Shown here piece by piece: positions 15,829 through 21,086 of a stretch of DNA of 64,000 nucleotides. The stretch lies in the IMG/VR virus record IMGVR_UViG_3300024503_000485, positions 1-64,000 of that record, one strand, 5' to 3'. Numbering within the stretch: position 1 is the stretch's first letter; every line of letters starts with the position of its first letter. The DNA comes from a virus. Position numbers and translations under genes: made by a program. The notes beneath the pieces are model-generated. The model had not been told where the DNA came from. It did no database searches and was given only the letters and a program-made list of their open reading frames with translations.

Positions 15829-16083
15829 ATGACACAAAGAGAAGTATTTGAATATAACAATGAAGAAGAAGCCGAAATGGCTCAGATTCATAGTCTACAC
15901 ATTAATCAGAACGCTATAGATTCTGTACAAGCAGAGTTGGCTCGTCAAAGATCACAGCCTAGTCTAGAGGAATGTGAAGACTGCGGTGAAGCTATTCCAC
16001 AGGCTAGACAGCAAATGGTCCCAGGTTGTACACGCTGCGTATACTGCCAAGGCTTATTTGAGCGTCGTAGAGCTGGATACTAA
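15829..16083 (+). CDS. TraR/DksA-family C4 zinc-finger protein
   Basis: C-terminal CEDCGEAIPQARQQMVPGCTRCVYCQ is the dksA/traR C4-type finger. The start sits just downstream of the promoter. Confidence 0.65.
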   Translation: MTQREVFEYNNEEEAEMAQIHSLHINQNAIDSVQAELARQRSQPSLEECEDCGEAIPQARQQMVPGCTRCVYCQGLFERRRAGY

Positions 16084-16153
16084 TAGGCCCCGCTGCTATA
16101 CACACGTACATGTATGCAAAAGAAAAGACTATTATCTAAAAGCAGAGACTCTA

Positions 16154-16452
16154 TGACCCTACCTGATGAACGTTATCGCGCTGTAGAGCAAACACAGCGT
16201 TTTCTAGAATCACTATTAGATTCTGCACAAACTCCCAGAGTACCCAAAAAGATCCGAGATTCAGCAAGAAGTCTGCTGCGCCACTATCCCTCACGTTGGG
16301 ATCTAGATCGTGCAGCAGCAGCTAGTCCTGATGTTTTTATACGTAGACTTGATCCCTTGTACAAGATGGTCAAGACTCATGACATGCAGCAGCGTATGGC
16401 CGAGGATGTGGAAGAAGATCTACGTGAAGCTAAGAATAGAGGTGAACTATGA
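16154..16452 (+). CDS. hypothetical protein
   Basis: ORF MTLPDERYRAVEQ... An alternative upstream ATG at 16114 would overlap a repeat element. Confidence 0.4.
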
Positions 16453-16625
16453 CTAGGATAAAGATTGTTCAACCGGTGGAAGCGGACGGGGAAGTGGCTA
16501 TGACTCCAGAAGAACTAGCACTAGCACAGGCTCGTCAACGTGCTGCGCTGGTGCCTAAATACGGGGAACCTGGCTGGAATCCTGATGCTCGCGACCCCGA
16601 CACTGACACCTTACCCAATCAATAA
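16449..16625 (+). CDS. hypothetical small protein
   Basis: 58 aa, ATGA-coupled to the upstream gene. Confidence 0.35.
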   Translation: MTRIKIVQPVEADGEVAMTPEELALAQARQRAALVPKYGEPGWNPDARDPDTDTLPNQ

Positions 16626-16631
16626 TTAATT

Positions 16632-16705
16632 CACGCATTAGCTCAGTTGGATAGAGCAACAGCCTTCTAAGCTGTGGGTCAGGGGTTCGAATCCCTTATG
16701 CGTGG
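16632..16705 (+). tRNA. tRNA-Arg (anticodon UCU)
   Basis: Manual cloverleaf: acceptor CACGCAT/ATGCGTG, D-stem GCTC/GAGC, anticodon loop CTTCTAA, T-loop TTCGAAT. An encoded CCA follows at 16706-16708. Confidence 0.8.
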
Positions 16706-16712
16706 CCAGTTA

Positions 16713-16787
16713 GGGCCTCTAGCTCATGTTGGTTAGAGCAGCGGACTCATAATCCGTTGGTGCCGTGTTCGACTCACGGGGGGCCCA
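16713..16787 (+). tRNA. tRNA-Met(CAU), elongator type; could be tRNA-Ile2 (lysidine)
   Basis: Acceptor GGGCCTC/GGGGCCC, anticodon loop CTCATAA, T-loop TTCGACT. An encoded CCA follows at 16788-16790. Confidence 0.75.
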
Positions 16788-16799
16788 CCACTTGAGAAA

Positions 16800-16832
16800 C
16801 CCTATAGTCAACTCAGCTATAGGGTTTTTTCT
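16800..16832 (+). terminator. rho-independent terminator
   Basis: 8-bp stem CCCTATAG/CTATAGGG followed by T6. Confidence 0.7.
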
Positions 16833-16860
16833 TGTCCAAACGGCTGTGATCGTGTACAAT
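16832..16860 (+). promoter_or_regulatory. sigma70-type promoter (TTGTCC-N17-TACAAT)
   Basis: Lies immediately after the tRNA terminator and drives small ORF 16882-17010. Confidence 0.45.
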
Positions 16861-16881
16861 ATGCATTTAAACAAGGACAGC

Positions 16882-17010
16882 AATGACAGCACTACAGCAA
16901 AAGTTCTACGCTGCGTTAGCCTCGCTACAGCAGCACACAAATTTAGATGACGAAGAACAGCAAGACGCAATTGCTGCACTCGCGCAGCTAATCGAGGATC
17001 ACGTCAAATA
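16882..17010 (+). CDS. hypothetical small protein (42 aa)
   Basis: RBS AAGGA then ATG. Reads MTALQQKFYAALASLQQHTNLDDEEQQDAIAALAQLIEDHVK. Confidence 0.3.
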
Positions 17011-18691: not shown

Positions 18692-18720
18692 AGACACACA
18701 TTAACACAAAGGAGCGTGAA

Positions 18721-19143
18721 ATGGCTACTCGAAGCACTATTGCAATGGAGCAACCCGACGGTCGCGTAATGCAGATCTACTGCCACTGGGACGGTTACCT
18801 TGATCACAACGGAGAGATCCTTCAGGAGCACTATCGTGATCGCGCTAAGGTTTTGGCACTCATGTATCTGGGCGATATCAGCTCCTTAGCTCCTAGCATC
18901 GGAGAACCGCACGATTGGGACAACTGCCCTGAGGGTGTCTGCAACGCCTACGGACGCGATCGTGGCGAATCGGGCTGTGAAGCTCGTGTGTTCAAGGACT
19001 TTGAGGACTACAAGGCCAACCACCAGTACGAAGAATACGAGTATATCTTCCGTTCGGACGATCAGTGGTATGTTTCCGAATACAGCCGAGCCTACCGCGC
19101 ACTTGAGCAGGTGCTGGCAGAAGCAGAAACCCTAGAGGATTAA
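18721..19143 (+). CDS. hypothetical protein
   Basis: RBS AAGGAGCG, 140 aa. Confidence 0.4.
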   Translation: MATRSTIAMEQPDGRVMQIYCHWDGYLDHNGEILQEHYRDRAKVLALMYLGDISSLAPSIGEPHDWDNCPEGVCNAYGRDRGESGCEARVFKDFEDYKANHQYEEYEYIFRSDDQWYVSEYSRAYRALEQVLAEAETLED

Positions 19144-19162
19144 GGGTTATTACTGAATGGGG

Positions 19163-19191
19163 TTGACAACAGCCTCATTTGGTAATATAAT
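19163..19191 (+). promoter_or_regulatory. early sigma70-type promoter
   Basis: GGTTGACAACAGCC, N17, TATAAT. Confidence 0.65.
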
Positions 19192-19224
19192 AGAGGTATG
19201 TTCAACAAATGCATAGGAGCGAAA

Positions 19225-20298
19225 ATGCCAGCAGTAATTGAGATTCGTGAGGGTTCGTATAAGATCCGTGGCTCAGATGTGAGCATGGCCGGTAACCGTT
19301 TCGAACTAGTAGAGCAATACAAAGAAGGTGCTCAGGGTGGTTATGTAACCGTAGAAGGTGGCTCTGTACAGCCTGCTAACCCTGGCATTCCAGATCGTAA
19401 GATCCGTATTCGTTGCAGTTCAGCACAAAGTTACATGATTGTCGCCGGTGAAGTGCCAGCAATGCCCGCAGGTGATAAAAGTTTGGAGCAGATTAAAATT
19501 TCAGATAATGCCGTAGCACACGAAACGGACGAGCAGATCATCGAACGTCTTCGTAACCGTTTTGACGTGCTCAAAGATATGACCAAAGCAGTCAAAGAAG
19601 GTACCGTGCGAGCTATGATCGTCACAGGCCCTCCAGGCGTGGGCAAGAGCTTTGGTGTAGAAGAAGTACTAAGCAAGGACGATCTCTTTGATATGATGGG
19701 TCAGCGCAAGCCCAAATATGAGATTGTCAAAGGCGCAATGTCAGCAGTGGGTCTGTACAGCAAGCTCTATCACTACAGCGAAAAAGGCAATGTTATCGTG
19801 TTTGATGACTGCGACTCTGTGCTGTTGGATGACCTTAGCCTTAATATTTTGAAGGCTGCTCTGGACTCTAGCAAGAAGCGTACTATCTCTTGGAACACTG
19901 ACAGCCGTGTTCTGCGTTCAGAAGGAGTGCCAGATCGCTTTGAATTTAAAGCAGGCGCTATCTTTATCACTAACATCAAGTTTGAGAATGTGCGTTCTAA
20001 GAAACTGCAGGATCACCTTGCCGCTCTTGAAAGCCGTTGCCACTACATTGATCTTCAAATGGACACAGATCGCGAAAAGGTCTTGCGCATTAAGCAGATC
20101 ACCCAAGATGGCATGTTGGACAGCTACGAGTTTGAAGACTGCGTTAAGGATGAGATCATTGATTACATTCTTGAAAAACGAGCACAAATGCGTGAGCTGA
20201 GCCTGCGTACGGTACTCAAGGTAGCAGACCTGCGCAAGAGCTTTCCTACAAATTGGAAGAGCATGGCAGAAGTTACCGTTATGAAGCGAGGTGCCTAA
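19225..20298 (+). CDS. AAA+ ATPase (Walker A GPPGVGKS, Walker B VIVFDDCD, sensor-1 FITN, SRC-type arginine-finger motif)
   Basis: P-loop and DD Walker B, with ESRCHYIDL resembling the clamp-loader/RFC-like SRC box. Has a ~110-aa N-terminal extension. RBS TAGGAGCG. Confidence 0.6.
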   Translation: MPAVIEIREGSYKIRGSDVSMAGNRFELVEQYKEGAQGGYVTVEGGSVQPANPGIPDRKIRIRCSSAQSYMIVAGEVPAMPAGDKSLEQIKISDNAVAHETDEQIIERLRNRFDVLKDMTKAVKEGTVRAMIVTGPPGVGKSFGVEEVLSKDDLFDMMGQRKPKYEIVKGAMSAVGLYSKLYHYSEKGNVIVFDDCDSVLLDDLSLNILKAALDSSKKRTISWNTDSRVLRSEGVPDRFEFKAGAIFITNIKFENVRSKKLQDHLAALESRCHYIDLQMDTDREKVLRIKQITQDGMLDSYEFEDCVKDEIIDYILEKRAQMRELSLRTVLKVADLRKSFPTNWKSMAEVTVMKRGA

Positions 20299-20540
20299 TG
20301 GAAGGCCCGTCTAAGACCTGTACTTGGATTGGGCCCGAGCAGGACCCTTTGAAGCACTGGCCCATTCATTACTGCGGGTGTCCTAGTGTTCAAGGGTCTA
20401 GCTACTGCGCTGATCACTACTGGAAGGTCTATGCTCGAGGCACTTCAGTTAACGGCCGTCGACGTGAACGTGCCATAGAGCAAGAGATTCAACAACTTAA
20501 ACAAGCACAAGAGCTTGAGGAGTATGAAAATGAAAACTAA
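20298..20540 (+). CDS. GcrA C-terminal-domain-like protein
   Basis: CTWIGPEQDP...HYCGCPSVQGSSYCADHYWKVY matches the GcrA C-terminal signature C.WP.G.P...FCG...PYC..H...AY. The N-terminal HTH is absent. Coupled to the upstream ATPase through a TAATG overlap. Confidence 0.55.
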   Translation: MEGPSKTCTWIGPEQDPLKHWPIHYCGCPSVQGSSYCADHYWKVYARGTSVNGRRRERAIEQEIQQLKQAQELEEYENEN

Positions 20541-20730
20541 CATCTTTACAATTGCCCTGCTGGCGCTTGTAATCGTATTCTTTTTTGCCGTAGGTCCTAT
20601 CCTGGTAATTTGGAGTATGAATACACTATTCCCCGTGTTGGCCATTCCGTATACGTTTTGGACATGGTTAAGCGTGGTCTTGCTCGGCGCATTCTTTCGA
20701 GCAAATGTTTCCATTAAACGGAAAGATTGA
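20524..20730 (+). CDS. small membrane protein
   Basis: Two TM helices. Confidence 0.4.
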   Translation: MKMKTNIFTIALLALVIVFFFAVGPILVIWSMNTLFPVLAIPYTFWTWLSVVLLGAFFRANVSIKRKD

Positions 20731-20732
20731 GG

Positions 20733-20761
20733 TTGCTATTTTACAACAAGAATGCTACTAT
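20733..20761 (+). promoter_or_regulatory. possible promoter variant (GGTTGCTA-N17-TACTAT)
   Basis: Weaker match to the cassette promoter consensus. Confidence 0.35.
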
Positions 20762-20810
20762 ATTGACACGCTGTGGAACACAGCCATATAACATAAAGGA
20801 AAACACAGAC

Positions 20811-21086
20811 ATGAAACGTATCTCTAAAGACTCAAAGACTTTTAAGATTTTTACTGCACTACAAAATGGTGACAAACTAACTGCAAGCCAAGCTGAGAAG
20901 CGTTTTGGCGTAAAGAACCTGGCTGCTGAAGCAAGCCGTCTCCGCCAAGCTGGTTATGCTGTTTATGCTAACTCTCGCAAGGCAGGTAATGGTGTTACCG
21001 TTACTGAGTATGAACTAGGCCGTCCTTCACGCGAGATCGTTGCTCTAGGCTACTTAGCTCGTAACATGGGCATGACATTGGCTTAA
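20811..21086 (+). CDS. putative HTH DNA-binding protein
   Basis: LTASQAEKRFGVKNLAAEASRLRQAGY is a helix-turn-helix-like segment. 91 aa. Confidence 0.4.
   Translation: MKRISKDSKTFKIFTALQNGDKLTASQAEKRFGVKNLAAEASRLRQAGYAVYANSRKAGNGVTVTEYELGRPSREIVALGYLARNMGMTLA

Follow-up and report, generated by a model that had tools for sequence, protein, structure and literature searches.

GcrA of Caulobacter crescentus combines an N-terminal helix-turn-helix (HTH) domain, which reads methylated GANTC, with a C-terminal sigma-interacting domain (SID) that Wu et al. described as a CCCH zinc knuckle of unique fold, each ligand of which is essential for sigma-70 binding (PMC5887438). The substitutions W120A, F130A, F132A, Y142A, and Y151A abolish the interaction with sigma-70 in two-hybrid assays (PMC5887438). 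Haakonsen et al. found that removal of the N-terminal domain leaves GcrA co-localised with sigma-70 at promoters (PMC4647560), and cryo-EM in 2023 placed a basic patch of GcrA on the non-template discriminator strand, at −7 to −4, through which the residual activation by GcrA truncated for its DNA-binding domain is exerted (PMC9976885). Phage homologs of TraR, for their part, bind RNA polymerase, reprogram host transcription, and raise phage yield, and the active-site-proximal DxxDxA tip is required for the activity of TraR and of lambda Orf73 (PMC9239242). Here, we compare these systems with two small zinc proteins, a free-standing homolog of the GcrA SID (the GcrA-tail protein) and a member of the TraR/DksA family, both encoded within positions 1 to 64,000 of the IMG/VR virus record IMGVR_UViG_3300024503_000485, a 64-kb stretch that we call the window.

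The best explanation that we can offer for this locus is a TraR-like protein acting in the secondary channel of the host RNA polymerase together with a GcrA-tail protein acting as a sigma-70 cofactor, in an early region that is itself driven by sigma-70; taken whole, we give it an even chance of being right. It starts from homology, predicted fold, residue conservation, promoters, and synteny, all of which were observed directly, and from these we infer both the binding to polymerase or sigma and the direction in which transcription would be changed.

The GcrA-tail protein and its family

A reading of the window made from the sequence alone had singled out three open reading frames (ORFs), all of which are present on the + strand (Table 1), and had taken one of them to be GcrA's C-terminal domain without its DNA-binding domain. 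Profile and fold evidence bears this out. The 80-aa protein starts at an ATG that overlaps the stop codon of an upstream ATPase gene (TAATG) and has a GAGGT Shine-Dalgarno sequence 5 nt upstream; only 7 residues precede its first Cys, and the N-terminal HTH of GcrA is absent. The sequence-only reading had expected Pfam and profile searches to recover both zinc protein families. PF01258 was recovered for the TraR-like protein, as described below, while PF07750 (GcrA) was borderline for the single sequence, which scored 17.0 bits (E 0.008) against a cut-off of 26.9 and matched profile positions 109–147 of 155, in the C-terminal part.

At the profile level, the relationship to GcrA was recovered. 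A profile built from eight homologs that are 53–89% identical was run against 1.84 billion representatives with no word index and retrieved 104 representative clusters, most of them 56–125 aa long; the longer clusters P0067, P0088, P0097, P0100, P0103, and P0109 are full-length GcrA by Pfam (50–103 bits), which the profile matched at the C-terminal end. When the family was compared with GcrA C-termini by hhalign, the probability was 99.0% and E was 5e-18 over 51 columns, with the caveat that most of the GcrA rows had been found using the phage profile. Taken singly, 33 of 67 family members matched PF07750 (E ≤ 0.01; best 6.5e-7) with no competing family, and eight of the 67 gave weak matches to the WRC zinc-finger family. 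The AlphaFold2 (AF2) model of the 80-aa protein has a predicted local distance difference test score (pLDDT) of 89.4, and its best Foldseek match in the PDB is the GcrA SID, 5YIX_B (probability 0.97; root-mean-square deviation 1.4 Å over 41 columns; template modelling score 0.67 on the target; E 0.23). The same chain is the best PDB match by sequence (E 0.26), in the expected register, and the best matches among viral structures are mostly to proteins named “GcrA cell cycle regulator”. By profile comparison and predicted fold, the 80-aa protein is a homolog of the GcrA tail.

The residues on which GcrA depends were compared using the SID and basic patch of the Caulobacter protein (PDB 5YIX and 7YE1; PF07750) as reference. 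C8, C26, C37, and H40, which are invariant in the 67 sequences, form the CCCH knuckle common to both proteins and correspond to the GcrA zinc ligands C118, C133, C143, and H146, with a spacing of C-X17-C-X10-C-X2-H in the phage protein as compared to C-X14-C-X9-C-X2-H in GcrA. After the zinc ligands, the positions that GcrA requires to bind sigma rank with the most conserved of the phage family: position 10 (W10; GcrA W120) is aromatic in 66 of the 67 sequences, position 36 (Y36; Y142) is Y in 65, position 45 (Y45; Y151) is Y in 62, and position 25 (Y25; F132) is Y, F, or M in 42. The two proteins also share the signature GxxYC-x2-H-x4-Y and a basic patch, which in the phage protein comprises R54–R56 and R58 and lies 14 residues past the His, as compared to 11 in GcrA; positions 54–56 are Arg/Lys-rich across the family. 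Unlike Caulobacter GcrA, the window protein is encoded by a phage, has neither the N-terminal methyl-DNA-reading HTH nor the linker and the L110/L113 segment, and carries an added helix of about 29 residues (51–79) that is largely acidic and modelled with high confidence. Judged from alignment and model, it would in effect be a natural ΔN GcrA plus a largely acidic C-terminal helix.

The sequence-only reading had regarded a free-standing domain of this kind as unusual, but it is not a one-off. A word-indexed search with a wide alignment placed at least 254 clusters, from phage contigs, in the family. The 120 clusters listed all encode proteins of 70–125 aa, some on contigs of up to 374 kb; most are nameless and the rest are called “hypothetical protein”, with one unrelated enzyme name. 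No description of a tail-only GcrA family was found in the literature searched, and the databases searched hold no name for this large family. Full-length phage homologs of GcrA, on the other hand, are already described, namely phiCbK gp222, Agrobacterium phage Atu_ph08 gp5, and GcrA-like-annotated proteins in Synechococcus and Microcystis phages, the latter from records annotated as cyanophages. These share the domain; unlike the window protein, which is the tail alone, they keep the DNA-binding domain, score above the Pfam GcrA cut-off, and are regarded as mimics of host GcrA.

Among cultured phages, tblastn found nothing significant with the 80-aa protein and nothing with the family member P0036, while the member P0031 gave a weak match (E 0.03) in Pseudomonas phage PA5oct. 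The PA5oct protein gp264 (EST35_0264; 75 aa; annotated as hypothetical) combines the CCCH signature with an acidic tail and is recognised by the family hidden Markov model at E 7e-8. Like the window protein, it is a free-standing SID-like protein with a CCCH knuckle and a C-terminal acidic helix, encoded by a jumbo phage with TTGAC/TATAAT promoters. It differs in its shorter C1–C2 loop (9 residues), its weak basic patch, and its position, which is not beside an NrdC.10-like ATPase gene, and tblastn with the window protein does not reach it. The related phage PA5oct depends on its host's RNA polymerase, with promoters of the form TTGAC/TATAATA (PMC7318152).

The occurrence of a member in a jumbo phage of P. 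aeruginosa, a gammaproteobacterium, means that an alphaproteobacterial host, at which the sequence-only reading had hinted, does not follow from the domain. Weak hints of such a host come from the HTH_39 homolog of phage HTVC008M and the GANTC cluster described below, and from two of four matches in metagenome-assembled genomes (MAGs). The MAG scan returned four contigs (L159–L162) of mixed taxonomy, uninformative as to the host and assigned to Beijerinckia, Planktophila (Actinobacteria), Burkholderiales, and an alphaproteobacterium. The first three code for SID-like proteins in which no N-terminal domain of GcrA is recognisable; these contigs are probably phage DNA that was mis-binned. The GcrA encoded by the fourth (L162) is full-length and compact (about 115 aa), and its tail, GKSYCAEHY, resembles the phage family.

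The TraR-like protein and the early promoters

The 84-aa protein ends in the C4 zinc finger of the DksA/TraR family, as the sequence-only reading had it: PF01258 (zf-dskA_traR) scores 37.2 bits against a cut-off of 24.9, phrog_54 (“DksA-like zinc-finger protein”) matches at E 2e-17, and the PDB returns E. coli YbiI (E 2e-9) and F-plasmid TraR (E 1e-7). Residues 46–84 align with TraR 33–71 and reach its C-terminus, taking in the helix after the finger, and C49, C52, C70, and C73 fall on TraR C37, C40, C58, and C61, in the arrangement CxxC-N17-CxxC. We fetched 63 viral relatives and aligned the distinct sequences in 30 rows. The most conserved segment of this alignment is N-terminal and acidic, FEYNNEEEAE(M/I/V)AQ, within which E13-x-x-E16-x-A18 is invariant. 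We take this motif to correspond to D3xxD6xA8 of TraR, so that the N-terminal helix would carry ExxExA instead of DxxDxA. Ahead of ExxExA stand 12 residues in the window protein and 11–14 across the relatives.

The protein thus resembles F-plasmid TraR, lambda Orf73, and P2 Orf82, members of the DksA family (PF01258), in its size, N-terminal helix, CxxC-N17-CxxC zinc domain, C-terminal helix, acidic-x-Ala tip, and early expression. It differs from them in its ExxExA tip, in the 11–14 extra residues ahead of the tip, which include the invariant FEYNN, in an additional Cys (C67), and in an mRNA that is apparently leaderless. Because Glu replaces Asp and the N-terminus is extended, we assign it, from its sequence, to a distinct subfamily of the known phage family, a Glu-for-Asp variant of the tip, and consider it likely to bind RNA polymerase's secondary channel.

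Both proteins are encoded in a region rich in perfect sigma-70 promoters. The window holds 19 exact TTGACA-N17-TAYAAT sites (2771–41711) as compared to 0.09 expected, and 14 of the 19 are on the + strand at 15.8–30.2 kb, which fits the earlier description of these genes as early. Most of the promoters have GG before them, their discriminators are AT-rich, and 20–30 nt past the promoter comes a near-invariant Shine-Dalgarno sequence, AGGAGCG, followed by an ATG; promoter and AGGAGCG leader together form a recognisable cassette of early genes. From what is established for DksA and TraR, promoters with consensus hexamers and AT-rich discriminators should resist inhibition of the TraR type, and a factor clamping the discriminator could assist them. 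ORF starts at 19198 and at 17041/17080 were dropped in favour of 19225 and 17098, which come after AGGAGCG.

Three genes depart from the cassette. At 15829 (+; the TraR-like gene), 27918 (+; ORF 27918–28469), and 41676 (−; primase), the ATG stands 6–7 nt past a perfect −10 element without a Shine-Dalgarno sequence, and the mRNAs of all three are probably leaderless, in the case of the TraR-like gene because the −10 element ends 7 nt before the ATG. The same layout is found upstream of the TraR-like genes of four relatives (L017, L036, L039, and L062).

Upstream of the TraR-like gene lie 460 bp of non-coding DNA (15333–15792) rich in short repeats: GAATCCACC(G/A)T occurs three times, AAAGTGTGA-like units three to five times, and AGCCTAGACTC twice. 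Rfam finds nothing in it; an origin, a regulatory array, and a small RNA are possibilities. The exact 10-mer GGCCCCGCTG occurs five times, always on the + strand (15341, 15534, 15770, 16086, and 24479); four copies flank the TraR-like gene, and the distance to a downstream consensus −35 element is 23 nt for the copy at 15770 and 39 nt for that at 24479. The 460-bp stretch also holds 11 GANTC sites at 15353–15723, where the window averages 1.1 per 400 bp, a cluster unique within the window. The GANTC count of the whole window is slightly low (180 vs 212 ± 15), and 34 relatives do not share the enrichment ahead of the TraR-like gene.

Base composition also sets this part of the window apart. G+C is mostly 46–49% at 13–30 kb (41–44% at 14–16 kb) as compared to 31–40% on either side, forming an island at about 12000–32000 whose edges are gradual and which coincides with the early-promoter block.

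Gene neighbourhood and identity of the phage

The features of the region are collected in Table 1. An Rfam scan of 14.5–21.5 kb returned the two tRNAs and nothing else, and Pfam, run on ten neighbouring early ORFs, gave the SWIM zinc finger as its single match. The PHROG label of the DUF2201 gene (“HNH endonuclease”, phrog_1314) conflicts with its Pfam domains.

Table 1. Coordinates of genes, promoters, and tRNAs in and around the early region of the window
Feature	Position	Strand	Basis or remark
Perfect sigma-70 promoter of the TraR-like gene, TTGACA-17-TATAAT	15793..15821	+	−10 ends 7 nt before ATG
TraR/DksA-family protein, 84 aa	15829..16083	+	PF01258, phrog_54, PDB TraR/YbiI
tRNA-Arg(TCT)	16632-16708		Within early region
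tRNA-Met(CAT)	16713-16790		Within early region
Perfect sigma-70 promoter of the ATPase / GcrA-tail / membrane-protein transcription unit	19163..19191	+	
AAA+ ATPase, T4 NrdC.10-like, 357 aa	19225..20298	+	phrog_1250; ATG after AGGAGCG
Free-standing GcrA sigma-interacting-domain (SID) homolog, 80 aa	20298..20540	+	Profile, fold, residue conservation
Small hydrophobic protein, 66 aa, probably membrane-spanning	20530..20730	+	Two membrane-spanning segments read by eye; overlaps 3' end of GcrA-tail gene
HTH_39 winged-helix protein, 91 aa	20811..21086 (in ORF 20727-21086)	+	PF14090, 31.7 bits vs cut-off 21.3
MoxR/CobS-like AAA ATPase	21983-23068		Own consensus promoter
DUF2201 protein, after MoxR/CobS-like ATPase	23226-24434		Own consensus promoter
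Small ORF ending in SWIM zinc finger	30405-30752		Pfam, 21.5 bits vs cut-off 19.6

The ATPase upstream of the GcrA-tail gene matches phrog_1250 over its whole length (E 2.5e-79), and tblastn relates it to 1301 phage records, including T4-like phages in which the gene is labelled nrdC.10. The gene order of ATPase, GcrA-tail, membrane protein, and HTH_39 is kept in relatives that are 55–64% identical; at 32–34% identity the ATPase, membrane protein, and SID-like genes are still together, in permuted order. The ATPase itself is 67–69% identical in the loci where the SID-like protein is 32–34% identical (L013 and L014), and about 75 kb separate the two genes in PA5oct-like phages. The linkage may therefore reflect inheritance, not function, and functional coupling with the ATPase was not counted as evidence.

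The small HTH protein had also been proposed to target RNA polymerase. Its HTH is real, as the Pfam score attests, but it is a generic winged helix and nothing ties it to the polymerase. Its AF2 model (pLDDT 82.7) has three helices, a beta hairpin, and a further helix, with Stf76 and winged helices of the PadR/MarR/TFE type as best structural matches; the protein is abundant and very highly conserved in this phage clade, with 2343 clusters, the best 120 of which are 74–100% identical. We considered whether it might be a detached DNA-binding domain of GcrA and rejected this, as hhalign gave a probability of only 17.8%, in keeping with generic HTH similarity. By sequence and model, it is a separate, generic winged-helix DNA binder and contributes little to the finding. 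Its only homolog in a cultured phage is gp110 of the SAR11 Pelagibacter phage HTVC008M (L163, 19911–20246), where it lies beside CobS, S21, and Hsp20 genes. A CobS-like ATPase is also found near the HTH_39 gene of the window, and S21 and heat-shock protein genes adjoin PA5oct gp264. No SID-like ORF was found in 126 of the 147 kb of HTVC008M, and tblastn gave no PA5oct match to the HTH protein at E ≤ 0.001. In 42 of 80 viral contigs, both genes are on one strand, with the SID-like gene 270–500 bp upstream of that for HTH_39.

Ligase, a gp41-like helicase, primase, and UvsX give the window a replication and recombination set of the T4 type. The closest UvsX matches, at 63–71% identity, are jumbo myophages: Vibrio 2.275.O, Xanthomonas XbC2, Pectobacterium CBB, Cronobacter GAP32, and Sinorhizobium and Agrobacterium jumbo phages, including Atu_ph07. 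When near-identical DNA was sought among GenBank phages for the region, the tRNA genes alone matched. The identical 80-aa protein occurs in 128 blocks of the metagenome collection, on contigs of up to 0.2–1 Mb, and the phage is therefore abundant, uncultured, and of jumbo size. The source is thus an uncultured jumbo myophage, and its earlier description as T4-like holds in a broad sense, given the UvsX matches and the NrdC.10-like ATPase beside the GcrA-like gene.

A proposed sigma-70 cofactor role and its alternatives

In the mechanism that we propose, the host sigma-70 RNA polymerase would transcribe the phage early region from its many consensus promoters, and the two small zinc proteins made from that region would bind the host enzyme directly. 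The N-terminal helix of the TraR-like protein would enter the secondary channel, its invariant ExxExA tip replacing DxxDxA, and the protein would depress host promoters with short-lived open complexes while sparing phage promoters, which have consensus hexamers and AT-rich discriminators. The GcrA-tail protein would use its CCCH knuckle to dock on domain 2 of sigma-70 and ride with the holoenzyme to promoters, where open complexes would be stabilised by the basic patch gripping the non-template discriminator strand. Having no DNA-reading domain, it could not select methylated sites; with a basic patch that would stabilise open complexes, it would therefore be a cofactor without a specific DNA site, not a decoy. 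Together the two would make a coherent pair, one damping those host promoters whose open complexes are unstable, the other supporting the holoenzyme at phage promoters. RbpA and Crl are cofactors that bind sigma domain 2, and AsiA/MotA are the means of sigma appropriation in T4. All of these are small proteins that ride sigma and alter open-complex formation or promoter choice; the analogy is one of mechanism only, as they have no sequence or fold relationship with the window protein and AsiA targets sigma region 4, not region 2. The comparison between GcrA and RbpA was drawn by Wu et al. (PMC5887438).

Several observations weigh against this mechanism. The Pfam score of the single sequence lies below the GcrA cut-off, the E-values of the PDB matches by sequence and fold are weak because the domain is tiny, and 5YIX was possibly in the training set of AF2. 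The N-terminal segment of the SID that bears the contacts L110 and L113 is absent, the C1–C2 loop is three residues longer than in GcrA (and five shorter in PA5oct gp264), the acidic helix has no counterpart in GcrA, and the aromatics could be conserved for the fold and not for the interface. On the sigma side, E. coli sigma-70 has Asp at the Caulobacter contact positions A136 and A143 (position numbering was checked against the residue list of the GcrA-SID paper), and A136E and A143R abolish GcrA binding (PMC5887438). Binding to sigma outside the alphaproteobacteria would therefore need a re-adapted interface, and each phage's protein would, to judge from these residues, need matching to the sigma of its own host. 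For the TraR-like protein, the tip is Glu, not Asp, at both positions and stands behind extra N-terminal residues, and D3N and D6N lower the activity of lambda Orf73 (PMC9239242).

Some of the same observations would fit a fold that is kept for a different partner, so that the CCCH knuckle binds, for example, the NrdC.10-like ATPase or nucleic acid and the likeness to the sigma interface is structural only. The stop/start overlap with the ATPase gene, a linkage that persists where the SID-like protein is just 32–34% identical, the tiny domain, the missing L110/L113 segment, and the WRC zinc-finger matches are consistent with it. The synteny, however, may be simple inheritance, given an ATPase that is 67–69% identical in the same loci and lies far from the SID-like gene in PA5oct-like phages, and the conservation of GcrA's sigma-binding residues, among the strongest after that of the zinc ligands, speaks for sigma; we consider this explanation unlikely. 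Still less probable is a two-piece activator, in which the SID-only protein and the nearby HTH_39 protein rebuild a GcrA-like, promoter-specific regulator. Their frequent proximity on one strand and the extra C-terminal helices of both proteins, which could pair, point that way. The HTH_39 protein, however, bears little similarity to the GcrA DNA-binding domain in hhalign, the genes are 2–5 kb apart in other relatives, HTVC008M has the HTH_39 homolog with no SID-like ORF found in the part covered, and the PA5oct search for the HTH protein gave no match at the threshold used, which together make this a very improbable account.

Two further explanations accept the docking on sigma-70 and differ in what it does. 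The sequence-only reading had suggested a decoy: in an alphaproteobacterial host, a SID-only protein would compete with GcrA for sigma-70 and, activating nothing itself, silence the cell-cycle genes that depend on GcrA. GcrA is an alphaproteobacterial regulator whose SID alone binds sigma-70 (PMC5887438, PMC4647560), the HTVC008M homolog comes from a SAR11 phage, two of the four MAG matches (the short SID-like ORF of Beijerinckia and the compact full-length GcrA) are alphaproteobacterial, and GANTC, clustered upstream of the TraR-like gene, is the CcrM/GcrA motif. Yet PA5oct infects a gammaproteobacterium, outside the class that conserves GcrA, and the GANTC cluster is not conserved among relatives. 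The conserved basic patch, moreover, argues for activity at promoters and not mere occupancy: ΔN GcrA reaches sigma-70 promoters (PMC4647560), GcrA truncated for its DNA-binding domain keeps residual activation through the patch (PMC9976885), and the patch is retained here, so that a decoy is less likely than a cofactor and, in our judgement, improbable. Many small phage proteins that target sigma are inhibitors. An anti-sigma-like shut-off at the early-to-middle switch, with the protein on sigma-70 domain 2 and its acidic helix blocking DNA or core contacts, could account for a helix that is absent from GcrA and confidently modelled. Against it, the GcrA SID sits on sigma in a functional activation complex as an activator, so occupancy of the site is compatible with transcription (PMC5887438, PMC9976885), the gene belongs to an operon with a sigma-70 promoter, among genes that need sigma-70, and the basic patch is conserved as in an activator. 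An inhibitor seems to us just as improbable as a decoy.

The cofactor mechanism extends from this locus to the family. Free-standing GcrA tails may be a widespread class of phage sigma-70 cofactors that dock on domain 2, stabilise open complexes through a basic patch, and act in hosts beyond the alphaproteobacteria, with GcrA as one fused member of a larger, largely viral family; we hold this generalisation tentatively and doubt it somewhat more than we trust it. Jumbo phages of the Rak2/CBB/PA5oct lineage lack their own RNA polymerase, and they are not known to have an appropriation system of the AsiA/MotA type. Through the natural variation of its motif, the ExxExA subfamily of TraR gives a means to probe the chemistry of the secondary-channel tip, and the member in the cultured phage PA5oct makes the idea of a phage cofactor testable by P. 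aeruginosa genetics and in vitro transcription. If true, a conserved module that binds sigma domain 2 but does not read DNA would open a new way of appropriating sigma, and the GcrA mechanism, which has so far belonged to alphaproteobacterial cell-cycle biology, would extend to the phages of other hosts.

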